Of a DNA stretch of 64,000 nucleotides, positions 8,801 through 40,503 are shown one piece after another. The first letter of the stretch is position 1, and the number at the start of each line of letters is the position of its first letter. Both the position numbers and the translations under genes were made by a program. Source of the DNA: Nemertoderma westbladi (Eukaryota > Animalia > Xenacoelomorpha); contig JAUCBJ010001668.1 in NCBI GenBank assembly GCA_032718475.1, positions 1 through 64,000 of the forward strand, read 5' to 3'. The notes under the pieces are model-generated. The model saw only the letters and a list, made by a program, of their open reading frames with translations. It was not told the origin of the DNA and did no database searches.

Positions 8801-9460
8801 GATTTTTAAAAGGCATTTTAAAACGCATTCACGACACGCAGCCCATAGAGTATCATAACAGACTGTCGTAATGGTAGCTGGCCCGGGAGTATCATATCGA
8901 ACTGGCAGAGGATAGGCCTAACATGCGCATGCGCGCGCATGCGCATACGGCAGGCTACCTAGTTCCCTTGCTGCCAGCTGTAGAGTACCGGTAGTGCACT
9001 ACTGTTGAACTGCACTAGACAGAATCAGAACAGCAGAAGTCAGCTAGTGCAGTAGTGGTATCGGTTCTGCGGTTGTGGCACTTGTGGCAAGGCCCTAGGC
9101 GTACCGGTACCTGTAACTGAATAAGCTCTTTGCTTTGAGTATGCTGAGCGTAGAAAAGCACTATAACTAACTGTATAAGACTATGGCAGTTCGCAGTATG
9201 GCTATATAAATACAGAAATACCCTATATAGGCTATTATTAGCCTATAGCACTGTAGCAGTATAGGGCTGTAGGGTGACCAGTGACCACTGATAGATTGCA
9301 GGTACCGGTCACCGGTACGTCTGTACGTTGTTTGACTTTGTGCCAATGCTGTTATCTGTTCTGCTGTTATTCAGAAACTGCTACCGGTAGTAAACCGCAT
9401 ACATTGAAATTTCATTATTATATTTATATTGGACGACATCGATTGCCTCGCTATACTGCT

Positions 9461-10667: not shown

Positions 10668-11213
10668 TTAAAAGAGAAACATATATATTTATTATAATTA
10701 TAAGGCTATAGAGGGAGGGATGTAACAGATTGGGCATTTATTTTCATTGGCAATCCGGACGGCTAGTACGTAAATTGTATTAACAGTTAACACGTTATTT
10801 TCAATGATAATCCAGATTGCTGAATACCCTATTGGAATCATGGATTTTCAAGGTAATTATTAAATTTCAACTAAACTACTACAACTAACAACTAAAAAAG
10901 TTAAAACTTAAAGCGAACACTAAAACTAAAAAAACCAACAAAAAAAAAACAGTAAAACCAAAAATGTATAAGTTTCGCTGTATGGAATAGAACGTAGGTG
11001 AGTTACCCCGGTATTAATTTCATTGCAATTTAGATAATTTACCAAACCAGATATTAGTATTATTCAATGTTAGTAACCCTAGCACAAACCCAAACTAGCT
11101 GCCGGCTAAAATGTATGAAAAACTAAAGAACTTATGCTAAAATAAAAAAGCAAGTTATAGTTATAAGCAAGTTCTATTGCATGAGTCACATGACGAATGA
11201 TATGATAGGCCTA

Positions 11214-21538: not shown

Positions 21539-21559
21539 CTTGCAAGAATCCCTTCCACC
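21539..21559 (-). pseudogene. 3' part of penultimate protease exon (GGRDSCK), split by the Polinton
   Basis: Minus strand GGT GGA AGG GAT TCT TGC AAG|gtaat; splices in phase to the GDSGGP exon; the GG codons are the Polinton TSD. Confidence 0.9.
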
Positions 21560-21874
21560 AGTAGTATAGGATGCTAGCCCCTCCGCACAAAGTCACCCGT
21601 AGCCCATCATTACCATCCATTTCTGGTACTGCAGCCAATCAGAAGCCACCATTTCAACCTTTTGCAGTGGTCGTTATTATTTCAACCAATCAGATGTCAG
21701 CATTTCATCCATAACCATGGTAACTTCTCAAGTTCCCGCATCTTCCGCTAGAGGCGTTATTAGTCACCCAACGCTAGTACTGCATCCAATCACCAACCTT
21801 TATTTTACAGGTGTTCGAGTGTCTACACTTAGCATCAGGTAACTTCTATTATTTTTCAAATCGCTATTTTTCAC
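21560..21874 (+). repeat. Polinton left TIR (315 bp)
   Basis: Reverse complement of 40063-40377 with 2 mismatches by eye; contains several CCAATCA boxes. Confidence 0.95.
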
Positions 21875-22455
21875 CAACCATTCCATATTCATCTTCACAT
21901 AGCCTAACCTCACGATGCATGGCTAGCCCCCATCCCATCGCTACTCAATCCACAGCTGTTACCCACCCAACCACCCACCAACCAACCAATCAACGGCGAT
22001 GTTTGCCTAACCCTACAGTTATTCACCTTTTCACAACGTTACCACCACTGCCACGTTACCACCACCACTGTATACTGTATATGGTGACGACGTGGCCACC
22101 AACTACACGCATCGTGCATATATTATATCGATTGCCAAATCCACGACTGCTCTCGCCAAATCAACAAACCAACTAGTATGATACATGAGATTCCGTCACG
22201 TTCTAGCTACGCGTATACGAGTATTAGTGATCATTATTACGCAATAATTTTTTTGTTTATACAGTAGTTCCCTACCAGCTAATCAACCAATCAATAAACC
22301 GAATTTAGGCTATTTCTCAGTTTAAGACCTGTATTATTTTTGAAAATATCTTATATATATAATCTCTTGCTTTAATCGCAATTAATCATTTGTAATGGTT
22401 TTAGTTTAAAAGTTTTTACTTTGTTTGTTTGATTTACAATAAAATAAATTAAATA

Positions 22456-22902
22456 ATGTCTTCTGATTCCAATATGGTTATGCCAATGGTAAGGCATTCA
22501 TTTTTTGCAGAAGATGGTCAAGCCTATATTGTTATTGATTATACAATTTACCGTCAGGGAGATGATAAATATAAAATTGAATTTTCTGAAAAAGCCAGGA
22601 AAGTTTTAAGCTCAATTGATATTGATGCTTCTGATAATAGTATTCATCTTTTAGATTACAACCTGAAAGCTGAGCATGGGGGAGGAAAATTAAGCAACAT
22701 TTTACTATTATCCATGATAGAGGGATTTATTGTTATTACACAATACAACGAAGCTGGTGAAAAGTTTGAAATACGGCTAAATCGGCATAGCCCCTACGAA
22801 ATTATGTCTTTCTTTATTGTAATGATTTCAAAAGAATCCTTTGTCGAACCTGAAGAATCAGCGGATAATGTTGAATATGTTGATAATATCATTGATTCTT
22901 GA
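22456..22902 (+). CDS. Polinton hypothetical protein with acidic C-terminal tail
   Basis: Intact 148-aa ORF with a TATA-like run about 100 bp upstream; no recognised family. Confidence 0.6.
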   Translation: MSSDSNMVMPMVRHSFFAEDGQAYIVIDYTIYRQGDDKYKIEFSEKARKVLSSIDIDASDNSIHLLDYNLKAEHGGGKLSNILLLSMIEGFIVITQYNEAGEKFEIRLNRHSPYEIMSFFIVMISKESFVEPEESADNVEYVDNIIDS

Positions 22903-23071
22903 CTTTTCCCTCTATATTATAAATATTTTATGATTATATATAAAATTTTGTTGTTTTTAAATAATCGAAAATTGTAGTAGTATTTGTATATACAGTATAA
23001 CAGTTTTGTTTGTTTGTTGTTGTTGTTGTGTATTGTGGTAATTATTTTCAATTTACTTTAAAATTTGGAAA

Positions 23072-23527
23072 ATGGATATTTTAAATGAAAAATGTCCAGT
23101 TTGCTATTCTAAGTTATTGCAACAACATCGAGATTATTATAAATGTGAAAATAAACATGCAACTTGCGTACAATGTATTGTACAATATTCCAAAATGAAT
23201 AATTATTGTTCTAAAATTTGTCCTATTTGTCGCGCATCCATATCTAAGTTTAATATAAAGTTGGCAAGATACCAACCCTATTATTGGAAAGAGCTTCGCA
23301 ATATAACTTATATTTCTGCGAAGAAAAGTAATGATCCTGGAGATTTATTTACAATATTGGAGAATATTTTTTATAGAAACGTAGTACGACGCTGTTGCTA
23401 CTATATTCCTTATTTTATTAGCAGCGAACATAAAAAAATCATTAGCGCGAAATTCTCGGGAAGTGATTTCCAAACCGCCGATGTTACCTATCATTATTTC
23501 GCGTATAAAGATGCTCACCATGCTTGA
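23072..23527 (+). CDS. RING-finger (C3HC4) protein, putative E3 ligase
   Basis: CPVC...CENKHATCVQC...CPICR. Confidence 0.8.
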   Translation: MDILNEKCPVCYSKLLQQHRDYYKCENKHATCVQCIVQYSKMNNYCSKICPICRASISKFNIKLARYQPYYWKELRNITYISAKKSNDPGDLFTILENIFYRNVVRRCCYYIPYFISSEHKKIISAKFSGSDFQTADVTYHYFAYKDAHHA

Positions 23528-23740
23528 AATTACATCAGTCTATACTATAATTGGAAATAGCACCTTTTGCTGCAGCGAGCGTCACATACTGTAGTTGTGT
23601 CATATGTTAATTAAATATACAGTACTCTAATATTATTGTAGTTCCAACAATTATTGTTATATACATAGTAATGGTGTTGGTTTATTGATATTGATATTAT
23701 ATTATATTATATTGTTGATATATCTTAATAATAATAATAA

Positions 23741-24421
23741 ATGGCTGACTTTAATTCAGGCCCATATAATTTAAACTTTCAAATGGGTACAAGTATGATA
23801 ATTTCAGGGCCATCTGGTTCCGGAAAGTCAACCTTTGTGGGGAATTTAATTAAACACAAGAATGGTTGTTTCAACGAAGCCCCCTTGCGAGTATTGTATT
23901 GTTACGGGAGCAATCCCCCGACTATTCCTGGTATTACTCACCTTTACAAAGGCTTGCCTGAAAATATAGATAGTTTAGTCAATAGTCGAGATTTATTAAT
24001 TATAGATGATTTGTTAACAGAAACTGAGTCCAGTACAGCTTTAACTGTATTGTTTACTAAGGTGGCTCATCATTCCAATATATTTATTTGTTTTATAACG
24101 CAAAACATGTTTTACGGTGGGAAGCATAACCGCACAAGATCAATTAATAGCCATACTTTAGTATTAATGAAAAATCCGAGAGACAGTCTATCGGTTTTAA
24201 ATTTCGCGAAGCAGATGTTACCAGGGCAGACCAAATTTTTAGTTGATTCCTATCAAGATGCGACAATTCAACCATTTTCACATTTCTTAATTGATTTACG
24301 ACAGGAAACACCCGAACATTTAAGATTTAGATCTGATATATTTCGTAATCATAATTGTTACATTAAAAATTACACTGACTATAAACGTAGCGAAAATAAT
24401 AATAATAATAATGATAAATAA
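23741..24421 (+). CDS. A32/FtsK-like genome packaging ATPase
   Basis: Walker A GPSGSGKS, Walker B LLIIDDL, ITQN, RTRSINS, KNPRD, LIDLRQ..LRFR. Confidence 0.93.
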   Translation: MADFNSGPYNLNFQMGTSMIISGPSGSGKSTFVGNLIKHKNGCFNEAPLRVLYCYGSNPPTIPGITHLYKGLPENIDSLVNSRDLLIIDDLLTETESSTALTVLFTKVAHHSNIFICFITQNMFYGGKHNRTRSINSHTLVLMKNPRDSLSVLNFAKQMLPGQTKFLVDSYQDATIQPFSHFLIDLRQETPEHLRFRSDIFRNHNCYIKNYTDYKRSENNNNNNDK

Positions 24422-24450
24422 TTAATATTTTGTAACAATTAATAGTAACA

Positions 24451-24832
24451 ATGAATAGACTTGTGCAGAAATATCGTAACGAACTGGAATTTCTACGCAG
24501 CGCTACCCCTCAACAAAGAACTTATTTTATTAACCATACCGCCAGTAACGAATTAATACGGCTCATTGTAAATACTGCATTAAATGTTCTAAAAGGTAAT
24601 GTACAATTGACCCCTCATTCATTTAGAAATATTCGCCGCTATAAGAAGGTAGAAATCACTCAACCGTAAAACAAAAAATATATCAAGTTACAGAAAAAAG
24701 TTAAGCAATCAATCTGGAGGCATACTACCGTTTCTAATACCCTTACTCGGCATTGGTGCGAAACTTGCCGCGAGTGCCGGTGCCGCTGCCGCGGGGGCTG
24801 CTATTGCGAAAAAAATTAACCGTGGACGGTAG
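24451..24832 (+). pseudogene. Polinton small virion protein with GG cleavage site and hydrophobic/amphipathic tail; frameshift at about 24650
   Basis: ..ALNVLKGNVQLT.. continues in the +1 frame as KSLNRK..NQSGG|ILPFLIPLLGIGAKLAASAGAAAAGAAIAKKINRGR*. Confidence 0.75.
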
Positions 24833-24838
24833 GTAATA

Positions 24839-25009
24839 ATGGTTAAAACGGGAGTAACATTTAGAAAATTATATTTAGTATCGAGTAAACCGTTAGCTAC
24901 TGATTTAAAACCACAAGATATACCTAGAGTAAATACTACAAAAAGAAAACCCTTTAAAACATCAACTTCGAAGAAAATAATTAAAAAATTTCAGTTGTTC
25001 TTACGGTGA
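24839..25009 (+). CDS. Small basic Polinton ORF (56 aa)
   Basis: MVKTGVTFRKLYLVSSKP..KKFQLFLR*; fills the gap between neighbouring genes; TAATAATG start context. Confidence 0.45.
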   Translation: MVKTGVTFRKLYLVSSKPLATDLKPQDIPRVNTTKRKPFKTSTSKKIIKKFQLFLR

Positions 25010-25060
25010 TGCCCTTTATAAGAGATTTGAATATACATATTACTTGCGGTTGTCGAAAAG

Positions 25061-26151
25061 ATGCCTCGCAAGATGAAACCGATTTTAACCCGAAGCTTAG
25101 ACAAAAAACTGTTAAGAATTTATTTAGATCCTTCATCCCCTGCGGGATTTGCAAGTGTTGCAAAATTAGCAAAAGCTGCAAACATCAAACCGGCGCAAGC
25201 CCAGAAATGGTTGAGCGGACAAAAGACATACACCCTTCACGCTCCACGTAGACAACATTATCCAACATCTAAAATATTTACGGGAGGCATAAAAGATATA
25301 TATATGATAGATCTGGTGGATATGCAGCAATATAAATCGCAAAATAATAATTATAACTATATATTAACGTGCATTGATGCCTTCAGTCGGCTTGCTTTTG
25401 CCTATGCTATGAAAACAAAAAAGGGTGTTGAAATTATTAGTATATTGCAAAAAATATTCCAGAAAGGAAAACCAAACAGAATCGCCACGGATCAAGGTTC
25501 TGAGTTTCTAAATAAATCTGTAAGGAAATATTTAGATACGTAGGTATACAGTATTACGTAATGTATTCTGTGAATAAGGCGGCTATTGTCGAGAGATTCA
25601 ACAGAACCTTAAAAACAAAGATGTTCAAAATTTTCACGCAAAGGGGAAATAATATTTGGATAAAAATTTTACCTAAGCTTATCTCGGCTTATAATAGGTC
25701 GTATCATAGAACAATACAAATGACACCTATTGAAGTTAATAAATTTAATGAAACTGAATTAATGAATAGATTATATGGGAAATATAGACAGATAAATCAC
25801 AAGAAAATAAAATTTAAAGTTGGAGATACAGTACGATTATCTATTGCTCGTACTGCTTTTGCTAAAGGCTATCGAGAACAATGGACACGTGAATTATTTA
25901 TTATTCATCGGGTCAGGTTGGATAGAGTACCAGCGGTAATGTTCGATATTAAGGACAGCACCGGAGCTATAATAAAGGGCTCATTTTATTCTCACGAACT
26001 CCAAAAGGTCCACCCGAATAGTAATATTTATCTAGCAATTGACAAAAAAAATATTGGCAAACTTAAAGAACGTGTACGCAATGGGAAGAAAGAATATTTA
26101 GTCCGATTCATCGGATCCAAGAAACAGTCCTGGGTACAGCATATTCAATAA
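25061..26151 (+). pseudogene. Retroviral-like (rve) integrase with chromodomain-like end; 1-bp frameshift at about 25541
   Basis: YMIDLVDM, CIDAFSR, TDQGSEF, VERFNRTLK, YNRSYHRTI, FKVGDTVR, EYLVRFIG..SWV; the two ORF pieces are in different frames. Confidence 0.93.
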
Positions 26152-26400
26152 GCTTAGGTTTATACTGTATATTAATTCATTTTGGTCGCATATGACCGTA
26201 ATTAATCAATAATATTAACTCGAATGATATTACTATATCTATAGTTCATCCGCTTTAAATAAAGCTAGTAAAATATTGATCCCTCACATATACTGTAGAA
26301 GATGCTGGCAATGAACGTGGTCACAGATGTCTATAATTTAACATTATACTGTATGTACAAAGGAGTCAAGTAGAGAGAGCGAGCTTAAATAATAATAATA

Positions 26401-27273
26401 ATGGCCACAGATACATATATCACTCTACTTTCAGATAGCTCATTGAACACTTATCCCAATAATAATCCTAGTGAGTTTACTGTTGATTTAGCCGAAGAAT
26501 TATATATTGGTCCAAACGCTAAAATTGGACTTGCCGAACTTCAATATCAAGCAACATACAGTAATATTACGCTGCAAACTCAAATCTCACTGTCAATCGG
26601 GGTAGATGCAAAAGATGCCAAATTATATAGTTTATTTCCTGGTATGCATAACTCTATTCAAGTGATTATTGATGATATAAATAAACTGTTTAATTCTGAA
26701 GCGAAATATAGAGATTTCGAATTCATTTTTAATACAAATAATTCTAGAATTAAATTTAAATTTCCTAAAAAGTTGAAAAAAATACAATTAAGTCTACGCG
26801 GCGATTTAATACAAATTCTAGGCTTAAAACCGTTATTGGATCGGAATCATCCGGATATTCCAAATTGGGATATATACAGTACCACTACAGTTGATGAATT
26901 AAGCAATATAGAACAGCCGATATTAATTTTAAATTATAGCGGGCCAAAAATTTCGGAAATTGGCATTTTAGATTTTCCAGCTCCCACGAATATAACACGT
27001 AATAAAGACACTATCTTTATATACACAGATATTATTAAGAGCTCATTTGTTGGCGACGCTTTAGCTCCACTCTTAAGAACCTGCCCTTTAACCCAATTAA
27101 ATCAAAAATATATTAATCACGAATACGAGAGCATTTGCTATTTCCCATTGTTGAATAAAAAACTAAAAACAATCTTAATTACTTTACGTGACGGCCAAGG
27201 CCAATTAATTAACTTCAGCGGAGGTCGCACTGTTATAACACTTAAGTTAATACGGGGTGGCGGCGATGGATGA
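26401..27273 (+). CDS. Minor capsid (penton-like) protein 1
   Basis: YITLLSDSSLNTYPNNNPSEFTVDL, IGLAELQY, IFIYTDIIKSSFVGDALAPLLR, ITLRDGQGQLINF. Confidence 0.85.
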   Translation: MATDTYITLLSDSSLNTYPNNNPSEFTVDLAEELYIGPNAKIGLAELQYQATYSNITLQTQISLSIGVDAKDAKLYSLFPGMHNSIQVIIDDINKLFNSEAKYRDFEFIFNTNNSRIKFKFPKKLKKIQLSLRGDLIQILGLKPLLDRNHPDIPNWDIYSTTTVDELSNIEQPILILNYSGPKISEIGILDFPAPTNITRNKDTIFIYTDIIKSSFVGDALAPLLRTCPLTQLNQKYINHEYESICYFPLLNKKLKTILITLRDGQGQLINFSGGRTVITLKLIRGGGDG

Positions 27274-28111
27274 GTTCTACGTTAGACTACCAAGTAATTC
27301 CTGTCCAATTGATTTTCCCCGCAATAGCGCTAGTAATTATCAGATAAATTTCCACGGCGCCTTACCTATAAATCCAAACGAAAACTGGGTGGTAGGTATA
27401 AAAAGTATATTTTACTTAGCAACGTTGCCGTCCATGTATAACAATGTAGAGAATGTTATTTTATTAAAAAAAGGGAAAAAAATTTTTGAGGATACACTTC
27501 CATCTGGTTTATTCTACAGTATCAATGACATTATAGATTATTTTAACACGGGGGCGTTGAAAGATAAATTACAAATAGTTGAAAATACTCAGCAAAATAG
27601 ATTGCAATTTATTTTAGGGAAAACTGTGCGAGAGTTATTTATAGGTCAACAATTAGCCTATTATTTTGGAATAACTGAAAATAATCTCGGTGCGAATTTA
27701 AATCCAAATTTTAAAATTATTTTGAAGACGAAAAATAATATAAAGGGTTATTTAATAAAGGTTATCGGAAATGGAGAAAAGGCTTACCAGATGGTATTTT
27801 TATGCCCTCAACCACCCAACTCTATTCCAGAACCTAAGTCGAACATGTACGTGACTACTAATATAATTGAAAATCAATATATTAACGATTTTGGTTTAGC
27901 TTTACTTCGTCGTGTTGCGATACCTGATGATGTGAAATATGGTAGCGTAATAAATAAAGAATTTGTCAAGGATACAATTCATTATATCCCTGTAAAAAAA
28001 TCATATAAGATAACATACATTCATATTGAAATAACAGACAAAGAAGGAAAAGATTTGAATTTTGAATACGGCACAACTTCTATTACATTACACTTTAAAC
28101 GTATAAATTAA
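27266..28111 (+). CDS. Minor capsid (penton-like) protein 2
   Basis: MDEFYVRLPSNS..FPRNSASNY, WVVGIKSI, MYVTTNIIENQYI..LLRRV, IEITDKEGKDLNF..ITLHFKR. Confidence 0.85.
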   Translation: MDEFYVRLPSNSCPIDFPRNSASNYQINFHGALPINPNENWVVGIKSIFYLATLPSMYNNVENVILLKKGKKIFEDTLPSGLFYSINDIIDYFNTGALKDKLQIVENTQQNRLQFILGKTVRELFIGQQLAYYFGITENNLGANLNPNFKIILKTKNNIKGYLIKVIGNGEKAYQMVFLCPQPPNSIPEPKSNMYVTTNIIENQYINDFGLALLRRVAIPDDVKYGSVINKEFVKDTIHYIPVKKSYKITYIHIEITDKEGKDLNFEYGTTSITLHFKRIN

Positions 28112-28112
28112 A

Positions 28113-28624
28113 ATGGATTCTGATTTATTTCAAAGATACAGTAAACCTCAATATGGGGGTTCAGACTCTAATCTTGCTGTTTTTAAAGGCGGAAGAAGTA
28201 CCAGAGGCTCGACGCAAGTTCCTGTTTTTCGTGGTGGTTCATATATTGACCCTTACGGTCAACAAATTGGCACATTTGGTCCAAACTTAAAACAACATCG
28301 TTTTCAGCGTTATCGTAGAGGTATGCAGGCAAATCAACACGGAGAGTTTTACGGAGAGTTTTACAGAAAGCTTTACCATTTACCACAAAATTTATGAGAC
28401 AACACGTAATACCAAAAGGTAAGCGGGTCTTACATCAGCAGGCTAATACGGTTATTAATAAAGCATTAAATAAAATGAAACCGTCAACAAGGTCGGTTGT
28501 AGAAAAAGTTTATAGAGATTTAAAGCGACCCGCTAGACCAATGTCTATGAACATACATCATCGACGTAGTAAAAAGAGAAATATAAAAGGCAAACTGAAA
28601 CACTGCGAAAAAAGTATTTTTTAA
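28113..28624 (+). pseudogene. Basic core-like virion protein; frameshift at about 28343
   Basis: QYGG, VFKGG, VFRGG motifs; ..QHG continues in another frame as VLRRVLQKALPFTTKFMRQHVIPKGK.. into the 28394 ORF; Arg/Lys-rich. Confidence 0.65.
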
Positions 28625-28626
28625 TA

Positions 28627-29886
28627 ATGTCAATTATTAAGGAATTAGATTTATTTTCTACACAGCCAATACAGACTGAATTTAAAGCAAAGCATTATGA
28701 AACAATTTACCCCGTATCTAATCTCAGAAGTGAATCTAGGGAGGTCACCTTCCTTGTACCCAGATCCAATGAATTCTATACGAAACTGCAAGACGCGTTA
28801 TTAATTAGAAAATGTACAGTACGTTGGGATAGACGACTTGAAAACTCCCATATTTATATGCTGAATTACCCAGCTGAAACTATATGGAGTGATATTAAAA
28901 TAGACCTTAATGAGAAGCAGGTTGAAAATAGCAATAACCATTATTTCTACAAGTCGTACTTATCCAATTTATTATTTACAACTTAAGAGGATAAAAATGG
29001 GCTACTGGGTGCGGGTGGCTTTCATCAACCTTTATCTGAACACGGAAATGAAATTGATCCCGGCGCGCATCCTATTGCCGATGCCTTTAGTAAACAAATG
29101 CAATTTGTAAGTGGATTGACGATTGATTTTGATACTGAAACTAAAATAATACAACCTGGGTATGATTTAAGAATGCATTTTAGAAAAGTATCAAATTCGT
29201 TTATTTTTAAAATCACTCCAAACGCAAACGCCGTGACAAATCTTCGACTAGAATTAGATGAAATAAAAATTCTAATCCCTAGAATGGAGGTTAATCCAGT
29301 AATAGAAAGCAGTCACCTAAAAGGTTTAGAGAGCTACGATATTGAATATCAATTTCAAAAGAAAGAGGTGACTACATTTACTATTCCCGCTCAAACCACA
29401 AATTACACCCAAACAAACATATTTGATGGTAAAAAACCCAAATTAGTTATTATTGGCTTCATAACAAATAACGCTTATTCGGGAGAATTAATTAGCAATC
29501 CCTTGAAATTTGAACATTTTAACCTTAGACGCGCGGAACTGATTGTAGACGGTCTTCCAGTAGGGGGTGTAATATACGAGCCTAATTTTACAGATGGAAC
29601 ATATATTTTTGAGTATACTCAATTAATGAAAAACATTAATACATATATTAACGGTTATGGAGGTAATAATATAGACCATGAAACCTACTTAGGTAATTGC
29701 CCCCTCCTATCCTGGGACCTAACCGCCGACGGCTACGTTAGAGATCCGCAACCCTCGATATATACTAACGGTCAATTAAAATTAAGATTTGCCGAACCGT
29801 TGGTTGAAACCATAAATGTAATCGTTTTTAATATTTATGATCAATCATTAAGTTTAAATAGGAGGAAAGAAATACATATCGATTAA
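28627..29886 (+). pseudogene. Major capsid protein (double jelly-roll/hexon-like); in-frame TAA at 28984
   Basis: ELDLFSTQPIQT, YFYKSYLSNLL, PKLVIIGFITNNAYSG..NPLKFEHFNL, WDLTAD, LRFAEPL; both ORF halves share a frame (about 419 codons). Confidence 0.9.
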
Positions 29887-29888
29887 GT

Positions 29889-30341
29889 ATGTTATCTACA
29901 GAGGACCTTGATATGTTTCCAGTGGGTGGTCACTATTTGGGCGCGTTTCCAGCTAATAAATTACCTAAATTAGATAATAATAAGCGGCAGGATTATGGCT
30001 TGATAGTAAATACTGATAGAGAGCATCTGCCCGGGATTCATTGGATCGCGATATATATACGAGATAATGAGGCCGAAGTATTTGACTCGTTTGGACCAAA
30101 ATATCCAAACAGATGCATCGAAAAATGGCTTGAGAAAAATTCCGCAAGGTGGCGTACTACACGCAAACAATTTCAAGACCCCAGGAGGACCACATGCGGT
30201 CTATACTGTCTTTATTATTTGGTAAATCGTATTCACACAATCTATCCAATGAGAGCGTTTACAAATAATGTGGAAATCAATGAAATTATATTATATAAAT
30301 GGCTTGTTAATTATTATAAATTAAACCAACAAACTTTGTAA
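29889..30341 (+). CDS. Adenain-like cysteine maturation protease
   Basis: IVNTD..PGIHWIA (His), FDSFG (Asp), QFQ..TTCGLYCLYYL (Cys). Confidence 0.93.
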   Translation: MLSTEDLDMFPVGGHYLGAFPANKLPKLDNNKRQDYGLIVNTDREHLPGIHWIAIYIRDNEAEVFDSFGPKYPNRCIEKWLEKNSARWRTTRKQFQDPRRTTCGLYCLYYLVNRIHTIYPMRAFTNNVEINEIILYKWLVNYYKLNQQTL

Positions 30342-30372
30342 TTAATCATTTAACTTTTGTTTATCAGATAAA

Positions 30373-30972
30373 ATGGATAATATTATTTTTGTTGATTTTC
30401 AATATTATAAGATAGACAATAAGGAGTATCCTGTAGTATTTAAAGAATTTGCTATTTTCGATTCTAATTACACCAAAACTAATGTAAAGACGTTTTTAAT
30501 TAAAGGCCCGTCTAATATTAAGTTATCAGCTTTAGATGCAGCTCACGTAAACAATTTACGGGATATGACTTCTCACTTGCCCTGGGACTACGGGGACATT
30601 TCTCAAGATGACTTTAAAAAATATATGAAGAGACATTTAAAATATAAAAAAAATATTCATGTATTTGGGTTGCTGAAACGGGCAATATTAGTTTCCCAAC
30701 TCGATGTTCACGAGCCAAATTCGGTGGAGAAATTGGGAATATATAAGCAATATCACGATTATTTAACGCCTTGTCGATTTCACGACCGATTCACTACAAT
30801 GGAAAGTAAATGCACGTTCCACTTAAACATAAGGGATAACTGTCTGCGATACTGCTCAGCAAAACGCGTTGGCGGGTATGAGGCTCTACACTTTTTCATG
30901 AGAAAGCGTTTAACTGCGACTGATGATGATGATAAACAGAAAGAAATAACTGCGGTGGAAGATGTACTGTAG
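30373..30972 (+). CDS. DEDD-exonuclease-like Polinton accessory protein (possibly inactive, DxQ)
   Basis: IIFVDFQY..FKEFAI, LPWDYGDI, IHVFG..K, C..H..C; family assignment by motif recall only. Confidence 0.55.
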   Translation: MDNIIFVDFQYYKIDNKEYPVVFKEFAIFDSNYTKTNVKTFLIKGPSNIKLSALDAAHVNNLRDMTSHLPWDYGDISQDDFKKYMKRHLKYKKNIHVFGLLKRAILVSQLDVHEPNSVEKLGIYKQYHDYLTPCRFHDRFTTMESKCTFHLNIRDNCLRYCSAKRVGGYEALHFFMRKRLTATDDDDKQKEITAVEDVL

Positions 30973-31324
30973 GTTTACTCTAAGCATGTAATGTGATGGG
31001 ATAATATAATTTTATTTTAGTGATGATCTTGATGTTAATATAAAAAATATAATAAAATATAATTTTTTACAACAAGTTCTCTAAAAAAGAGTCAATTGCG
31101 CTAGGTTAACTATACACATTTAACAATATGATGTAGACGTAACATGTACAGTAAGTATTCTCGATATCATTCTAATATAGATGTACTGGTATTGTGAAAC
31201 AGCCTATACATCGCAAACTAATAACACATACAGTAGTTGACTAGTAATATTAGTCAGAAAATGCAACATAATCTGTATAGGGTGTAATGATAACCTGTTG
31301 GTACCGGTACTGATAAATTATAGG

Positions 31325-32490
31325 CCTATCTACAACTGTCATCCACTTTATCAGTACCGGTAGTGTTTTACTCTTCCAACACTGTAGTTTCTGTCTAGTG
31401 GTATCGGTACAGCAGTAATCTGATGCATGCAGGGGTCTCACATATAGGGATTAGATCACCTATCCAAACAATACAGTACTGCTGTACTGTCGCTGTTCTT
31501 GATGTAACATCATAATCAGATAAAGCATACTGATTTCCTTTGATTAGCATTGTACTGCAGTACCGGTACGACAGTACCTGCAGTAACAAACTAAACCAAT
31601 GTATACAATATCGTGAGCTAGTTACAATCAGATGTGTACGCAGTCAGCCACGTTGCGGGGATGCGGTCAACCTCACAGCTAGCCTCGCAGCTCCTATCCA
31701 CAACTGTCATCCACTTTATCAGTACAGCAGTAATCTGATGCAATAGCATTTGTTTTTTTTCACCTATAAGGATACTGCTGTCTACCCGAACCTTGATTAG
31801 CATAGGCCTACAGCTGTCATAACCTAGATTACATGCAGGGGTCTCACATATAGGGATTAGATCGCCTACCTAAACAATACAGTACTGCAGTACTGTCGTT
31901 GTTCTTGATGTAACAGCATAATCAGATAGAGCATACTGATTTCCTTTGATTAGCATTGTACTGCAGTATTAATGTAACAGTACCTGCAGTAACAAACTAA
32001 ACCAATGTATACAATATCGTGAGCTAGTTACAATCAGATGTGTATGCAGTCAGCCACGTTGCGGGGATGCGGTCAACCTCACAGCTCCTATCCACAACTG
32101 TCATCCACTTTATCAGTACAGCAGTAATCTGATGCAATAGCATTTGTTTTTTTTCACCTATAAGGATACTGCTGTCTACCCGAACCTTGATTAGCATAGG
32201 CCTACTGCTGTCATAACCTAGATTACATGCAGGAGTCTCACATATAGGGATTAGATCACCTACCCAAACAATACAGTACTGCAGTAGGCCTACTGTCGCT
32301 GTTCTTGATGTAACTGCGTTGTCAGATAGAGCATACTGATTTCCTTTGATTAGCATTGTACTGCAGTACGGTACCGGTACCACAGTATTAATGTAACAGC
32401 ACCCGCAGTAACAAACTAAGTCATTGTATACAATATCATGAGCCGGATATAATCAGATGTGTACACAGTCATGGGATGCGGTCAACCACG
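31325..32490. repeat. Three imperfect ~400-bp direct repeats between the convergent Polinton gene blocks
   Basis: ACAACTGTCATCCACTTTATCAGTAC at about 31332, 31700 and 32094; AACAAACTAA..GTATACAATATC at about 31585, 31991 and 32410. Confidence 0.9.
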
Positions 32491-32680
32491 CAGTCAGAGC
32501 AGCATCGCTGCCAGCCTCGCAGCCAGCCTCGCGGCACGCAGCAGCCTCGCAGCCAGCCACCCTCGCGGCACGCAGCAGCCTCGCAGCCAGCCACGCAGCC
32601 AGCCTCACGGCGCGCAGCAGCCTCGCAGTTGATCATGCAGTCAGCCAGCCAGCTACGCAGCTAGGCACGCAGTCAGCCCG
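32490..32680. repeat. GCAGCC/CTCGC low-complexity repeat
   Basis: Repeated GCAGCCTCGCAGCCAGCC-like units. Confidence 0.8.
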
Positions 32681-32766
32681 TGAGAGTCATACTTATTCAA
32701 ACGAGGTTAGTTTTCCCTAACTACCGATAGATTGATTGAAAAATAATAATGTTTAATTTTCACCTT

Positions 32767-33312
32767 CTAATCACCAACACCTAAAGTCACAACACCAAAC
32801 ATTAATAAATAATTAACAAGTTTACTAAATATAGGGTAATAAATATGAAATTTGCTAGGTGAACACATTAAAGTACATTTACCGGTATGAAAGCAGCAAA
32901 TGACTACGGTATTATTTATTCTTATTTTGCAATTATTAAAAATTTCAGGTTCATATATAACTTGAAGTTGCACATTATCAAAGACAACATAAAACCCGGT
33001 ATTGTTTATCAATAACCTATAGACTACAGACTTAATACTAAAAATATAAGTACATAAATTAACAGATTTTAAAATCAAATTAATACTAGTTTTATCAAAT
33101 ATATGCTTTTTTACTTTTTGGAAATTATACTTACTGCCTAATAATGTAATACGACCATTTTTAAATATTAATAATGTGGCACCAAATATCTTATATATAA
33201 ACTGATTTGGTTTGAGTATGTGTTTACCAGATAATTGATTTTTTAATTCTTTAAAATTAATCGCTGACACTTGCTGGCAACTTACATTCTTATTGACTAT
33301 CTGATAGTTCAT
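32767..33312 (-). CDS. TATA-binding protein (TBP)-like protein encoded by the Polinton
   Basis: Two TBP half-repeats: YQIVNKNVSC, ATLLIFKNGRITLLGSK (cf. TTALIFSSGKMVCTGAK), YEPEIF (cf. YEPELF), ICCFHTGKCTL (cf. LLIFVSGKVVL), YYPIF (cf. IYPIL); 181 aa matches TBP core size; intact. Confidence 0.8.
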   Translation of the reverse strand: MNYQIVNKNVSCQQVSAINFKELKNQLSGKHILKPNQFIYKIFGATLLIFKNGRITLLGSKYNFQKVKKHIFDKTSINLILKSVNLCTYIFSIKSVVYRLLINNTGFYVVFDNVQLQVIYEPEIFNNCKIRINNTVVICCFHTGKCTLMCSPSKFHIYYPIFSKLVNYLLMFGVVTLGVGD

Positions 33313-36300
33313 TGTTTGGTTCCCGATAAATAGGTATATTGTTTTTCTTTATCGGTTTTTCGACCTTTGTTTGATAGTGACCCCAGGGAAGCGAATGATT
33401 TTTATTAACCCAATAAAGTTTATCATCAAATGCGCTGAGAGCAAACTTATCACGTGCTATAGTATACACTTTGTGTAATTTACTTTGAAATTGATGTATT
33501 TCTTTTGAAATTTCTTCGTTTGAGTTATATGCTCTTACATAATCTTCGTGGCAAATATTTTTATCCACAACAGCTCTTGTTATTCCTTTCGCCCGTCGTA
33601 TATTGGATTCATTGAATTCCAAAATTGAATATAATTTTGGTCTTAAAAATACCGCTTGTTTAATTTCACGTGAGGCTAGTTCATCTTTACAGTAATAGAG
33701 CCTGGATTTATTTTTATCGCTGTAGAGTGGGTGATCCTTGGGGTAATTGGATGTATCTAAAATATTATTTTTAATTAATGCTTTTAAGAAATTACTCTGC
33801 GATGTATTATAGTAACAACCTATCAATGAGTCCGTATCTGATGCTACAATTTCAATACGGCAGTTTAATTCTAGCAATTTATCGTAATACAGCTGATACA
33901 TATCCAATTTAGCCAAGTCCAAGATAGTACTACCTATATAGACCGGCTTATCGAGAGTTACAGAGTCTTTTACTAATAAGTGACCCTAGAAGGAATCGTT
34001 ATAAATCATGAAATTTTCGTGATTTATACGTTTGACTAATTGGTCACATTTTTCTTTACTATTAGCGATACGAAAGTTGCATCGGTCCCTTATTTTTTCA
34101 ATCGTTTTTCCAAATAACGAATTATTCAGAAGCTTCGCGACAGCTGTTTCAATATACGTTTTTGCTATTCTCCTTTGATTAATATTAAAATCTATATAGG
34201 GTTTAAATACAAAGTCTTGATGGAAAGAATACAATTTATGGAGCTTAGTAACAATTAAACCTTGTTTTATATAAAATTTTAACAGTTTTAAATTTATATG
34301 ATAGAATTCCTTATCGAATTGTGTCAACATAAGTTTTGGTGCACACATCTTATAATTGCTATTAGTGCCTCTTTGTTTACAAACATGATTATATTGTTCC
34401 CTCATATATGGTGAAAGCATTGTCTCATTTATACTTAAATGTTCTGGAGCTAAGGGTAGTTCTAATGTACGATCGTGAATATCTTTGGGATATCGCAAAT
34501 TAAGAAAAACCCAATATCCCCTTCAGTATCAAGATTTGATAAATATTTTATTAGTTCTTCTGGAGCAGCATTCTCTAAATATGTAACGTTGACTTGTTCA
34601 AACCCTGAAACAGGTAGCTTTTTACTTAAATTACCAGAATACAAGGAATTAAAATCTATATTGAAAATATGACACTCTTCCTTGCTTGGATCATAATTAT
34701 CAGTATCTGGTATATTTGATTCTATGTAATGCTTTCGACAGAATGAAACCCCTCCTCTAATAGATGCTTCAAAATCTCTATATGTTTGGTAATCTTTTAT
34801 TAATGCTAACTTACATTTATTGTATTTCAGGGCGCAATCATAAGTGAAAGCTGCGATACTGCAATAATAAACTACTTCTAATTCGTAGTTTTGTCTACAT
34901 ACTCTCCTAAAGTTCTCAAATATATCAGCGTGGAGACAAACATCGAGTTTTAAGTATGCTAAAAGATAATCCTTGAGATTCACACAGTCAAACTGACTCC
35001 ATGATGCGTTGGCAAAACTATATTCCTCGGGAGTACAGGTATTTTGTGTTAATTTACTATAAAATTTGTCTATTGATGGTAATTTCGAATCATTGAATTT
35101 ATTTAAATCTGACAGATACTCGTAGGGAAATATACCTTTTCGTTTAATTGTTGCATTATTTAAATTTGGATAAAAATGTTTCATTTGCTGTTCAGTAATT
35201 GGTAGAACTGATGTTATATCCTCGCTGTCTATATCCTTTGTTGAACAATCAACTAAAGTACTTAGGGAAAAGGATAAAAATTGATATGTGTCTAAGACAC
35301 GTAGCTCGATTTTTGTTTTTTGTTCTTTCACTGGTATATGCATACTCAGTGAAATATACCTTTCAGAATTTTTAGGGATTACCTTTATATCCCAATCGGA
35401 ATATTTGTTATTGCTAAACCCAACTTGCAAAAGAAAATGCAAATCGTAGAGATTGCAGTTGTGTGCAGCGAGTATATACATGTGTCGTTTCAACGATAAA
35501 GAGCGGTTACATGCGTTACAAGCGGCTGCTATATAGTTACCAGTAATATGTGAGTGATGTTTATTTTTCTCAGACTTATCCTTAAATAAAACATTGCAAT
35601 AAAAGCAAGTTTTAGCTTTCCAAAAACTTAACTTATCTACTTCGTTAAGTATAATCTTCTCTCGCGTATGGGTTTCTGCCTACTTATATAATTGGGTGAT
35701 GTCATTATATACAGAGTCTAAAAAGTCTTGAATACAGTTGTTGTCGATTGTTTTTGTAAAGGTCTTCAAATAAAATTTTGGTGGATTGATTAATTCACTA
35801 CTAGGAACAATTAAATAACTTACAGCGCATGGAATATGATTCTGAATAAATTTACTGTTGGTGGCTGGCTCCAAAATAGATTCTATGTCAAAATATATTA
35901 CAAACAATGCTGGTAATGTTCTGTCTAAATTTCTAAAGCTAATGTGAGTTCTTTTTTCAGACGGTAGCTTCTCAACTTGACTTTTTCCTCGATAACAAGC
36001 AAGACGGTGACGTTCTAGAACATTTCTGTAGAAATGCGACAAACACCGTTCGCAATATTTCCTACATCTAATATGCTTACCTGTTGTATTCATCAAACGA
36101 TTCAAGTTAGTTATGCAAACATAATGTGATTGTTTACTCGTATTCTTATTTTTTACAAGTAATATATTCAATAACTCTTTATCTGGAGTGATTTTACTAA
36201 ATGGAGCCTGTCTTATATAGATACTCGATTGTTGTCGTAGAGTAATAAATTAATTATATATGCTGAATTCTGTTTTTCAAAAAGTTTAATTGCAAGCTGC

Positions 36301-37286
36301 CATTCTGTTGGATAATCTTTGTTCCCATTGTCAAAAATAAAATGACTCATATAATTTTTGTACTGCGAAGTACGATATTTGTTGTTCTTCACTTTGCTAC
36401 TAAATTTTGTGGCTATAATTGCCCATTTAAAACAATCATTATCAGCCGTTTGTATATTTATAACACATCGTTTACTCGATAGAGCCTTAGGTAACTCCAT
36501 ATAACCGTGACCTTTATATTCCAGTGACTTACACTTGGATTCAGCTACTTTAATTTCCACTCTTAATAAAGATTTAACGCGCCACCCTGAGCCACGAGTG
36601 TTAAATATGGCTATTTTTTGCATTAATTTTTCTAGTACATACTCAAACCATGTGTCAAAACTTTCATGTGAATCTACGGTATTAACTGAACCACCTGGAG
36701 AACTAAAATAGAAAGTTTCTTCTTGGTCACCCTCTGAAAAATGTGATCGATACATGAGTATATTCACACCTAGCCAGGGTCTAAGTACATTCATTTTGCT
36801 AAGTTTTCCTAATAATAGGTTTTTGATGTGTGGTAGAATATGAACTATGGATGAATGAATATCAGGAAAATCTTCATCATTTGGAAGATTGTAAACATAG
36901 ATTTCTAAACGGTTATCGTGTGCGGATCGTTCGATGCTAAAAATTGATGGACCTTGACCAGATTTCAGTCTTTTTCTAGATGCTACAGTATTGTTTTGGT
37001 TCCGTTGTGATGGTCTAACATGATAATAACGTTGGTGGCAGTCGTGACGTAAATAATTCTCATATAAATACTCTTTATTACAAGTAGGGCAAGTTTTTTC
37101 ATACACGTAAAGCTTCATTTCTTTACATCCCGTAGTTGTTTCATGTCGTTTGCATATTTCTTCACGTGAACATTTCACATGACAATTAAAACAATTGTGT
37201 TCTTCAAAATGAGATTTCACGTGTGTTAAATAATTTCGTTTAGAAATTTGAAGAGGACAAAATGGACATTTCAATTGTTTATCCAT
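33290..37286 (-). pseudogene. Protein-primed family B DNA polymerase with HNH/EndoVII-like insert; 2 frameshifts and 2 in-frame stops
   Basis: N-terminal Cys/His fingers, GSGW, INIQ..CFKWAI; Exo motifs YFDIES, AHN..YDLHF, YLKLDV; CFYC..KHHSHITGNYIAAACNACN (about 35500-35610); Pol motifs DFNSLY, KLLNNSLFGK, SDTDS, RPKLY, KG. Breaks at about 36213, 35680, 34490 and 33986. Confidence 0.95.
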
Positions 37287-37840
37287 CTCTTTATTATCCT
37301 AAAAACAATTTAAAATTAATATGAATATTGTTATATATATAATCAAAAAAAATTCATAAGCTACTCAACACAAATAAAATATAATATCTAAACTTTAATT
37401 AATTTAATATTTTCAGAATGAGCTCGATTGAATCAGTTGAGCTCTTTATATATATATATATTTCAAGTTTCTACTTATACCAACCAATCATAAATAACAG
37501 TTACACTGGAAACTAATATCATAAATAAAGTTGCTTTTACAACTGAATTCTTTATAATAAAATCAAGTCTAAACCAAGATGTGCATAATGCGTTTTTAAT
37601 TTTCATTGATAAAGTAGGTTTTACATGCTAATGTTTTATTATGGTGGTGTAAACTCATGCATTTACATGCGAATGTTTTATACCTAATCCCATGCTCACA
37701 TTAAATATAAACTATCACCAATATTTACTCAATAAAGTCACCTTTACATGCAAATACTTTATAATAATCACGCTTTGTGATAAAAAGTTACCTTTACAAG
37801 TTAGTGTGAAACTGAAAAAAAGTCTCTAGTTAATAATAAA

Positions 37841-38884
37841 TCAATCTGATACTGTTTTTATATGTTCCTTATTGTAATCTGCTACCTCTTCACTTGCTTT
37901 TGTAACTTTTATTTTCTTTGTAGGTATAGAATCATTGTTGGGAATGGAAGATGTTTGAGATGTAGATCTGCGCTTTCTATCACTCGAGGTCTCTTCGATG
38001 TATGTCTTTGGATTAAATGTGGATGAAACTACTTCTGGAAATGACTTATTAACCTTAAACTTCCAAGTTGGTGGATATAGAATCGCGAAACCGTCTGCTA
38101 TATCAGTTGATGAAACATTTAACATCATATCGTAGAGAAACTCTATATATGGTATGTCTTTATCGTAATGTAACTGTAAATATTTGCTTTCCTTGTCTGT
38201 AATAATTACTTTTTTTTCTTGTACATTTATTTTTACTTTAAGTCGGTCAGATAAAGCTTTATCGTCCGTATCTAGCTCTGAAAAGACACCTTCGTTACTA
38301 ATTTCATAATTCCACTCATACCACAATGAATTTACTTCCGATGCTGTTAAGTTAAACCCATTATAATACCTAAGACCAATAGCATCAGAATATCTAGCTG
38401 AAATCTCCCATAGTCCCATATAAGTCGCTCCTTTATATTTGCTTACAAAACCAACAAAAGATGGGTTGGTTAAATTAACAACAGAACACTGATTTATTAT
38501 TTCGAGTGGTGGTGATAACAATTCTAATATTTCTGTCTTACTCTGAAGCAATAAATTAATGAGTGATTTGTTTAGAATTTGACATTTGCCTTGCTTCTGA
38601 ATATATACGTTTTCAGTAATAACACAGGTGGAAATATTTAACTTTCCTCTTGTAAATTCTATATTAGGATAAATATTACCTCTTGAAACTGGTGATTCCT
38701 TTTGTCGGTTGATTAATATTTCTAAGACGTCTAGAAGGTAGAGTGTATCCTGGTAAGAGAAGCACGTTGTTACATTGCTATCGCTTGAGAGTAATATAAG
38801 GTACTTGCCATAAACAATACTACAGGTATATTTATTAAATGTAAATTTCCAAGTATTGCTTGAAGTTTTTTTAAATAAATCCAT
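37841..38884 (-). CDS. Polinton hypothetical protein, possible PC4-like ssDNA-binding/coactivator domain
   Basis: Intact 347 aa; VSKYKGATYMGLWEI..NGFNLTASEVNSL resembles PC4 (V..FKGK..IDIRE..KGISL..EQW..L); basic NLS-like KRRS/PTKKIK near the C-terminus; TATAAA about 70 bp upstream. Confidence 0.55.
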   Translation of the reverse strand: MDLFKKTSSNTWKFTFNKYTCSIVYGKYLILLSSDSNVTTCFSYQDTLYLLDVLEILINRQKESPVSRGNIYPNIEFTRGKLNISTCVITENVYIQKQGKCQILNKSLINLLLQSKTEILELLSPPLEIINQCSVVNLTNPSFVGFVSKYKGATYMGLWEISARYSDAIGLRYYNGFNLTASEVNSLWYEWNYEISNEGVFSELDTDDKALSDRLKVKINVQEKKVIITDKESKYLQLHYDKDIPYIEFLYDMMLNVSSTDIADGFAILYPPTWKFKVNKSFPEVVSSTFNPKTYIEETSSDRKRRSTSQTSSIPNNDSIPTKKIKVTKASEEVADYNKEHIKTVSD

Positions 38885-39321
38885 AATTAGAATGAAAACT
38901 ATTTTGAAAAATAAAAACTAAATAAATGATTATTAGAATGTAAAACTTCGGTTTATATGCTTGCTTTAATAAAACAGAGTGACTTACAGTGAGGAATATA
39001 GTTGCTTCGTGTAACAGATGCAACGTGTACAGCTAAATTTATTACATTAGCGTGAGTTAGAGAGTGAAATAGCAGTAACGTGTAACAGATGCAACGTGAT
39101 CAATGCTAGCCCTGTCATTCTAACTTATATTCAACTTAGTTGATCGACCAGTTACATCGATAAAAGAAATCGATTATTATTAATAGTCGAATTAATGTAT
39201 TCTACGCTATAGTAATTATGTTAAGGAACTAGAAGCTATTTATAAACATCTGCTACCTGTGATGAAGATGAAGAATTCAATGACTATGGTATAACTCAGA
39301 TATTTATCGCCTTTTTCTCTC

Positions 39322-39397
39322 GAGGTTGGATGGAAGAGTGATTGGTGAGTTGTGAGGAGTTATATCGGTCCCGGGTTCGAACCCTGTTGAATATTTT
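39322..39397 (+). ncRNA. Candidate Pol III (type 2 promoter) small RNA unit
   Basis: A-box-like TGGAAGAGTGA (39331), B-box GGTTCGAACCC (39374) in a T-arm-like stem, TTTT at 39394; no complete cloverleaf. Confidence 0.35.
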
Positions 39398-39398
39398 G

Positions 39399-40183
39399 TT
39401 ATCTGAAAAATTGCAAAATTAAATTTAGTTACTAGTGAAAAATAGCGATTTGAAAAATAATAGAAGTTACCTGATGCTAAGTGTAGACACCCGAACACCT
39501 GTAAAATAAAGGTTGGTGATTGGATGCAGTACTAGCATTGGGTGACTAATAACGCTTATCTGAAAAATTGCAAAATTAAATTTAGTTACTAGTGAAAAAT
39601 AGCGATTTGAAAAATAATAGAAGTTACCTGATGCTAAGTGTAGACACTCGAACACCTGTAAAATAAAGGTTGGTGATTGGATGCAGTACTAGCGTTGGGT
39701 GACTAATAACGCTTATCTGAAAAATTGCAAAATTAAATTTAGTTACTAGTGAAAAATAGCGATTTGAAAAATAATAGAAGTTACCTGATGCTAAGTGTAG
39801 ACACTCGAACACCTGTAAAATAAAGGTTGGTGATTGGATGCAGTACTAGCGTTGGGTGACTAATAACGCTTATCTGAAAAATTGCAAAATTAAATTTAGT
39901 TACTAGTGAAAAATAGCGATTTGAAAAATAATAGAAGTTACCTGATGCTAAGTGTAGACACTCGAACACCTGTAAAATAAAGGTTGGTGATTGGATGCAG
40001 TACTAGCGTTGGGTGACTAATAACGCTTATCTGAAAAATTGCAAAATTAAATTTAGTTACTAGTGAAAAATAGCGATTTGAAAAATAATAGAAGTTACCT
40101 GATGCTAAGTGTAGACACTCGAACACCTGTAAAATAAAGGTTGGTGATTGGATGCAGTACTAGCGTTGGGTGACTAATAACGC
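39399..40183. repeat. 5 x 157-bp tandem array overlapping the inner end of the right TIR
   Basis: TTATCTGAAAAATTGC at 39399, 39556, 39713, 39870 and 40027; nearly identical units. Confidence 0.95.
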
Positions 40184-40377
40184 ATCTAGCGGAAGATGCG
40201 GGAACTTGAGAAGTTACCATGGTTACGGATGAAATGCTGACATCTGATTGGTTGAAATAATAACGACCACTGCAAAAGGTTGAAATGGTGGCTTCTGATT
40301 GGCTGCAGTACCAGAAATGGATGGTAATGATGGGCTACGGGTGACTTTGTGCGGAGGGGCTAGCATCCTATACTACT
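40063..40377 (-). repeat. Polinton right TIR
   Basis: Inverted copy of 21560-21874. Confidence 0.95.
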
Positions 40378-40503
40378 TCCACCTTCAAAATAACCGGCAC
40401 AAATCATAGAATCATCTATATCATCTTCATCATAATGAGGTGCAGGTTGTCTGGGGAATGATGGGCACACGGACTTCCTGTAGAATTGTCCCGTCTTGGG
40501 GCC
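40378..40503 (-). pseudogene. 5' part of penultimate protease exon (gene A), frameshifted
   Basis: ttattag|..PQDGTILQEVRVPIIPQTTC [frameshift] PHYDEDDIDDSMICAGYFEGG, continuing at 21553 as RDSCK. Confidence 0.9.

Follow-up and report, generated by a model that had tools for sequence, protein, structure and literature searches.

A TBP-family gene kept beside pPolB in a Polinton/Maverick family, and a candidate promoter motif in the same element

How Polintons control when their capsid genes are expressed, and whether these elements count as true viruses that have an early and a late programme, is the question raised by a short ORF in the stretch of DNA analysed here (64,000 nucleotides, referred to as the window). 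The initial annotation had read this ORF as an intact TBP-like gene coupled to the gene for the protein-primed DNA polymerase B (pPolB) of a Polinton, and had suggested that its product may redirect host Pol II or Pol III to the promoters of the element, as a late-transcription factor or a decoy.

Polinton/Maverick elements are defined by long terminal inverted repeats opening with AGT and by a 6-bp target duplication. The location proposed for the ORF was borne out: inverted repeats of 315 bp that start with AGT enclose 18.8 kb of DNA, a 6-bp duplication flanks them, and pPolB, an rve integrase, a packaging ATPase and an adenain protease lie between them, with pPolB and the integrase broken in this copy. 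The layout of the element, with capsid positions assigned from gene order and homology to a related locus (L012), is as follows.

21554..21559, plus strand: left 6-bp target-site duplication, TCCACC
21560..40377, no strand: whole Polinton/Maverick element, 18,818 bp, ends AGTAGT...ACTACT
21560..21874, plus strand: left terminal inverted repeat, 315 nt, 99% complementary to the right one
22456..22902, plus strand: orf1, 148 aa, without family match
23072..23527, plus strand: RING-finger-like ORF, 151 aa, under the Pfam cut-off
23741..24421, plus strand: packaging-type P-loop ATPase, 226 aa, below the Pfam cut-offs
25061..26151, plus strand: rve integrase, split over two frames
26401..28111, plus strand: two paralogous ORFs, 290 and 281 aa, in the minor-capsid position
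28627..29886, plus strand: ORF in the major-capsid position, in-frame stop at 28984-28986
29889..30341, plus strand: adenovirus-type cysteine protease (adenain), Pfam Peptidase_C5 24.6 bits against a cut-off of 21.3
30373..30972, plus strand: orf199, without family match
32767..33312, minus strand: TBP-like ORF, 181 aa, two TBP repeats, ATG at 33312, stop TAG
33290..37286, minus strand: pPolB, broken by two frame changes and two in-frame stops
37841..38884, minus strand: orf347, without family match and without Atlas match
40063..40377, minus strand: right terminal inverted repeat
40378..40383, plus strand: right 6-bp target-site duplication, TCCACC

The minus-strand arm comprises orf347, pPolB and the TBP gene, the plus-strand arm everything from orf1 through orf199. 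Polintons typically encode a double jelly-roll major and a single jelly-roll minor capsid protein. The ORFs in capsid positions have neither a Pfam nor a PDB sequence match; they match ORFs in the same order in L012 (E 1e-20 and 5e-13), the major-capsid one pairing with an ORF of 439 aa, and gene order together with this homology suggests that they encode capsid proteins. The two minor-capsid-position paralogues match each other (E 1e-13), and a single one is found in L012. When compared by tblastn with full-length relatives, pPolB occupies three frames, changing frame near 36230 and 34505 and interrupted by in-frame stops at 35680-35682 and 33986-33988. Its C-terminal frame is matched by 96 longer proteins, the best 45% identical and several carrying Pfam DNA_pol_B_2; its relatives include mollusc and aphid proteins, which, taken with THAP and Mutator transposases flanking the element, point to an animal as host. 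Because no RNA polymerase or TFIIB gene was recognised in the 18.8-kb element, it would depend on host machinery.

Several further features of the element were recorded. Both orf347 and orf199 are unbroken, with no Pfam or NCBIfam match for either, and orf199 has an N-terminal acidic motif that we take to resemble that of DEDD nucleases. At the inner edge of the right inverted repeat, a 157-bp unit is repeated five times in tandem with 99% likeness (39399-40183), and a 121-bp part of this array mirrors 21754-21874 of the left repeat. The converging arms are separated by a 1.8-kb spacer (30973-32766) with duplicated blocks of about 400 bp, several TACAGTA cores and, immediately downstream of the TBP gene, a GC-rich CAGCC tandem block (32498-32628).

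The TBP-like ORF reads without interruption, with zero internal stops between 33312 and 32767 on the minus strand, as annotated. Its start overlaps the pPolB stop (TAA at 33290-33292) by exactly the 23 nt given in the initial annotation, the overlap being with the last fragment of the broken polymerase gene. Since pPolB, the integrase and the capsid-position genes are broken in the same copy, the intactness of this one ORF alone proves little: at the lesion density of this Polinton copy, about 7 per 12.3 kb of coding DNA, a 546-nt ORF would be left undamaged with a probability of about 0.73. Its description as intact does not carry the sense of special retention, and intactness in this copy was rejected as evidence of domestication.

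The homology to TBP was upheld by Pfam PF00352, which scores 36.1 bits against a cut-off of 22.9 (E 5.7e-9) and aligns in two stretches, in agreement with the two half-repeats originally noted. Our own TBP HMM, built from 80 ORFs picked by a TBP motif (78 TBPs, with 2 non-TBPs left in), aligns residues 15-149, spanning both repeats, at E 1e-7 in a search of one sequence, and a single TBP in the sequence comparison matches both halves of the protein. Two NCBIfam TBP models match weakly, far under their cut-offs. In the Atlas, the three clusters that match best are TBP-domain ones (0.95), 50-67% viral; at a recognition value of 2000, below the tool's 2300, this counts as supporting evidence and not as independent proof. 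These sequence comparisons confirm 32767-33312 as the coding region of a predicted TBP-family protein, in which the following residues stand out: N7, F38, L48, F50, N85, Y120-E121-P122-E123-I124-F125, R131, F141 and G144-K145. The phenylalanines reported at three DNA-intercalating positions, in LIF (F50), EIF (F125) and CCF (F141), are present.

Identity to 52 TBPs, hand-picked from the 80 motif-selected ORFs, is 16-27%, two eukaryote-type ones giving 16% and 22%. For the comparison of single residues we used the yeast numbering of Table 1 in PMC12529657. Kept are N69 (N7), L114 (L48), F116 (F50), F190 (F125) and F207 (F141). The fourth intercalating phenylalanine is possibly, and probably, F38, which would make four of four: both the HMM and MAFFT pair it with F99, on an ambiguous register that needs a deletion of 3+2 residues, five in all. 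N7 falls in an invariant column; N85 matches N159 by repeat symmetry read by eye, where MAFFT places Y89. None of the eight TATA-reading positions is identical (V71>N9, V122>T56, T124>L58, V161>C87 or F91, P191>N126, L205>C139, V213>T147 and T215>M149), and the favourable register retains 7 of the 16 DNA-face positions. According to the available text of PMC12529657, the TBP proline at position 191 favours T at the first TATA position, and acidic residues of the stirrup are critical for TFIIB. The latter are printed there as E184 and E188; the paper's own numbering of L189 and F190 puts the glutamates of YEPE at 186 and 188. An acidic C-terminal stirrup of this kind can be recognised in the sequence as Y120-E121-P122-E123, in a comparison whose TBPs were themselves picked by that motif.

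On the fold, the outcome was divided between two models. The one computed without an MSA has a pLDDT of 41.9 and shows the strand-helix order of two TBP repeats; Foldseek returned no match for it at E 0.001, and VIA-align gave a best Z of 5.7, with TBP absent from the best 50 rows. Its residues 17-80 align with the RNase H3 N-domain, which we take to be a TBP-like fold, at Z 5.1 and 4.9, under the meaningful level. The model built from a TBP alignment reaches a pLDDT of 78.7 and does match TBPs, in a comparison that is circular as a test of TBP identity: Foldseek gave 44 matches at E<=0.001, with TBPs in all listed rows at a TM of about 0.45, and VIA-align gave 38 TBP rows at Z 8.7-11.0, the next fold scoring 7.4. 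The rmsd of about 7 A leaves the lobe geometry loose. In both models the region of helix H1' is predicted as strands.

In a tree of 32 rows, among which the host TBP is not included, the protein sits on a branch of 7.3 and has no placement. Because of this branch length, recent capture is excluded; no donor is named. Apart from this protein, seven loci on viral contigs of 34-166 kb (L082, L083, L089, L091, L092, L095 and L104) form a well-supported clade of divergent archaeal-type TBPs, and two others (L088:869-2566 and L107:5584-7281) encode a 566-aa viral protein with a degenerate N-terminal TBP domain and repeated basic segments.

To what extent is the gene a regular part of this Polinton? 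The 1.3 kb around it was recovered in 980 contigs of run X1 and 470 of X3, from >99% to <90% alike; such a spread is what many variant copies give, contig depth not being taken as copy number. Contigs bridging TBP and pPolB occur in X1, X3, X4 and X5, which bears out the linkage in other copies. A subfamily about 83% identical (X4, X5) retains the TBP ORF adjoining pPolB, and a still more distant one (X1, X3) also bridges the two genes. It should be noted that X5 is labelled as a second organism and has low depth, so that a relative and contamination are indistinguishable there. The adjacency of TBP and pPolB is conserved and the exact overlap is not, because 105 other letters replace 87 at the junction of the divergent subfamily. 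The coupling to pPolB proposed in the initial annotation stands as adjacency kept in the copies, and the 23-nt overlap was rejected as a conserved coupling device.

The variation among copies indicates selection on the protein. Among the 40 variant sites listed out of 185, 16 fall in the TBP ORF, 12 of them silent and 4 non-silent, and none of the four listed indels lies within it. For one divergent contig, covering residues 18-92, 33 of its 40 differences are listed; pooled with 14 sites from a second divergent contig, 33 of the 47 listed sites are third-position changes (p 3e-7). At these listed sites of the two contigs, silent changes account for 21 of the 39 altered codons, where 19% would be expected, and no stops occur. 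A rough Nei-Gojobori estimate over 54 codons gives a dS of 0.81 and a dN of 0.15, hence a dN/dS of about 0.18 between subfamilies. Because of this excess of third-position and silent changes, together with the dN/dS, we conclude that the TBP gene is under purifying selection within the Polinton family. Among the changes listed for the divergent contigs, none replaces F38, F50, N85, F125, F141 or E123, and position 121 remains acidic. The possibility of a one-off capture, which the initial annotation had considered, does not agree with many variant copies and a divergent subfamily that keep the gene beside pPolB under purifying selection.

Outside the family, comparison with 41 candidates close to the protein in length, with 383 longer ones (E up to 10) and with 1.84 billion representatives gave no sequence relative. 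In viral contigs 31 pattern matches for the protein were obtained and 0 confirmed, and PDB sequences returned one non-TBP match only (E 0.12). Among 80 metagenome loci with a related pPolB, encoding 1,730 ORFs, none has a TBP (best E 0.13); 58 of the 80 extend at least 700 nt beyond the match, and gene order is different in most. Viral contigs contained no related loci with the full pPolB relative, a capsid-position ORF or the ATPase as query, and Polinton genes were found near 0 of 29 viral loci with the TBP motif. As TBP is kept within the family and absent from the 80 pPolB loci, it is an accessory gene of certain Polinton lineages.

If the protein acts at promoters, the upstream spacers of the element may hold its binding sites. 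A candidate, TATACWGTA, was first spotted by eye and then tested by an unbiased 8-mer search with one free position, in which ATAC.GTA ranks first with a score reached by 0 of 200 shuffles. The window contains 18 matches to TATACWGTA against 2.2 expected. Six distinct sites (8 strand matches) fall in 937 bp of upstream spacers, or 8.5 per kb, against densities of 0.13 per kb in the host flanks and 0.16 per kb in coding parts; this spacer set omits the 391 bp at 24670-25060, which look like broken coding sequence and have no site, and two spacers of about 30 bp. The motif stands ahead of four plus-strand genes; these sites, and one nearer the left inverted repeat, have the following positions.

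22071..22079, plus strand: TATACWGTA site, palindromic, about 200 nt inward from the inner edge of the left inverted repeat
22258..22266, plus strand: TATACWGTA site, 198 nt upstream of orf1
22989..22997, plus strand: TATACWGTA site, palindromic, 83 nt upstream of the RING gene
23586: shorter ATACTGTA, near the site upstream of the ATPase
23616..23624, plus strand: TATACWGTA site, 125 nt upstream of the ATPase
26161..26353, plus strand: three TATACWGTA sites (26161, 26289, 26345), preceding the first minor-capsid-like gene by 240, 112 and 56 nt

Read along the plus strand, each of the element's 9 sites gives TATAC; 3 are palindromic, and the asymmetric ones are aligned with the plus-strand genes in 6 of 6 cases. 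The 970 bp upstream of the minus-strand genes pPolB and orf347 contain none, the two inverted repeats and the area near the right end are free of the motif, and no exact site lies close to the major-capsid-position and protease genes. In the host flanks the motif core occurs 6 times against 1.3 in shuffles, about four-fold. Ahead of the minus-strand genes there are ordinary TATA-like runs, TATAWAWR having 14 matches against a shuffle mean of 3.1.

The explanation that we prefer, and to which we would give about an even chance from what the sequence holds, is that the ORF encodes an old, element-adapted TBP that likely binds TATACWGTA and, by prediction, brings host TFIIB and Pol II to the genes of the packaging side. 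The protein would be made early, together with pPolB, from the minus-strand arm. Its phenylalanine pairs would kink the DNA, the more polar face (V71>N, V122>T, V161>C, P191>N, L205>C and V213>T in yeast numbering) would accept a motif containing G:C, and the YEPE stirrup would dock host TFIIB; Pol II might thereby be brought to the arm bearing TATACWGTA, giving an early/late switch. The promoter-factor role of the initial annotation stands as far as a candidate motif and a retained TFIIB stirrup carry it. Against a core-promoter role, the distance from motif to ATG ranges from 56 to 240 nt and the sites occur in clusters, as would equally be expected of an upstream activator site; enrichment of the motif core is seen in the host flanks too, so a host factor may be its reader; orf1 and the RING gene, two of the four genes behind the motif, are not structural; and the major-capsid-position and protease genes lack an exact site nearby.

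An alternative is that the viral TBP is functional at ordinary TATA-like boxes, with TATACWGTA read by a host factor or by another protein of the element, such as orf347 or orf199. The excess of TATAWAWR upstream of the minus-strand genes speaks for it, as do TATATATAA at 53, 137 and 102 nt upstream of pPolB, RING and orf1, respectively, and the presence of an enriched TACWGTA core in host DNA. We nevertheless consider it unlikely: with 7 of 16 DNA-face positions kept, the protein points to a changed specificity, and canonical boxes could already be served by the host TBP. A decoy or repressor that ties up host partners or blocks promoters, dampening transcription of host or element, appears rather unlikely. 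Besides TFIIB, the partners of TBP include NC2, Mot1 and TAF1, and a protein that keeps the acidic stirrup, with strands predicted in place of H1' in both models, may have lost some partner surfaces; a TFIIB binder that does not enter TFIID could be dominant-negative. A pure decoy, however, need not keep intercalating phenylalanines, yet these are unchanged between subfamilies, and the element has an oriented motif of its own.

The tight and conserved linkage to pPolB would equally suit a DNA-bending protein that works with the polymerase at the element ends, in replication, integration or packaging, and has no role in transcription. The palindromic site at 22071 near the left end could be taken in the same sense, and TBP-like folds do occur in proteins that have no part in transcription: RNase H3, RdgC and Rep proteins all appear in the structure searches. 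The inverted repeats and the right end have no site, however, most sites lie in spacers upstream of genes, and the TFIIB stirrup is retained, so that we regard this as quite improbable. A neutral, recently captured fragment of host TBP, or a chance ORF, would account for the failure to find relatives outside the family and for the 0 of 80 related-pPolB loci with a TBP; it is opposed by purifying selection between subfamilies, by the low identity to the 52 TBPs (eukaryote-type ones included), by the long branch and by the lack of introns, and we think it very improbable indeed.

Were the element-adapted TBP with its own promoter motif to be correct, the viral-TBP strategy of herpesviruses and giant viruses would extend to an integrating virus that is small and has no RNA polymerase of its own, and the protein would be a natural example of a conserved TBP saddle that changes DNA specificity and yet keeps the contact to TFIIB. 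The boldest form of this reading, which we put forward tentatively and think somewhat doubtful, is that an 18-kb integrating virus has a private late switch made of a single protein, a TBP that reads TATACWGTA and docks host TFIIB; no smaller viral pre-initiation system would then be known, and the protein would be a naturally occurring TBP of altered specificity.

How does the protein compare with known systems? With cellular TBP (PF00352; PDB 1ytb, 1cdw and 1mp9) it shares the two-repeat build of about 180 aa, three and probably four of the paired phenylalanines, perhaps the asparagine pair, the YEPE stirrup and the FxxGK/R turns. It differs in its low identity (16-27%), in the replacement of most base-reading hydrophobic residues, in an apparent 5-residue deletion of the first stirrup, in predicted strands and about 9 additional residues where TBP has helix H1', in the lack of an N-terminal extension and in its residence in a mobile element. 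The element itself resembles other Polinton/Maverick elements (adintoviruses) in its inverted ends, 6-bp duplication, pPolB, rve integrase, ATPase, adenain protease and capsid-position genes, and differs by carrying a TBP, in contrast to all 80 related-pPolB loci, L012 among them, which shares the ATPase, the integrase and the capsid-position genes. The adintovirus criteria given in the available text of PMC8502044 include an OTU domain at the PolB N-terminus and an Alpha or Beta class.

A TBP in the Polinton circle is not wholly new, and the novelty is lower than the initial annotation suggested: the legend of Fig. 5 in Starrett et al. 2021 (PMC8502044; bioRxiv 10.1101/697771) labels a TBP gene in a MELD virus with an adintovirus-like PolB, a virus that, like the present element, is of middle size and belongs to the Polinton/adintovirus circle. 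The section concerned deals mainly with non-animal datasets and offers for the TBP label neither an analysis of residues nor a test of selection, a promoter motif or a function, and the searched part of the supplement has no match for TBP. In our literature search this legend was the sole link between TBP and the Polinton circle, and supplements beyond those searched, Repbase and subscription papers may bear on novelty. The main text of 10.64898/2026.06.19.733378 does not mention TBP or TATA.

The closest functional parallel is the vTBP of beta- and gammaherpesviruses (KSHV ORF24), which, in the available text of PMC12529657, keeps four phenylalanines, has a polar DNA face and reads TATTWAA late promoters. 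Judged from that text, the two resemble each other as viral TBP mimics: Phe and Asn are conserved, the DNA face is more polar, and a variant TATA motif goes with the protein, on late promoters for ORF24 and as a candidate for the element. By this analogy the element TBP may work like ORF24. It is not a member of that group: ORF24, as described there, is a multidomain protein of 752 aa, with an N-terminal domain for direct binding of Pol II and a C-terminal one for DNA; it depends on five further viral factors and does not have the TFIIB acidic residues, whereas the element protein is a stand-alone core of 181 aa that keeps the TFIIB residues YEPE. The Nucleocytoviricota and mirusviruses also encode divergent TBPs (BFVD matches; available text of PMC10132985), but in large genomes with their own RNA polymerase, for which no counterpart was recognised in the element.

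Other mobile DNA was observed in the host flanks. An element at 8707-13274 has inverted arms of 126 nt (98%), an ORF with an integrase core at 9561-10667 (Pfam rva_4) and an alpha-kinase ORF at 11214-12524 (Pfam Alpha_kinase, E 1e-28); it is possibly a DNA transposon carrying a kinase. The flanks also contain a THAP-domain transposase (188-1330, minus strand) and a split Mutator-like transposase (58072-59448, minus strand).
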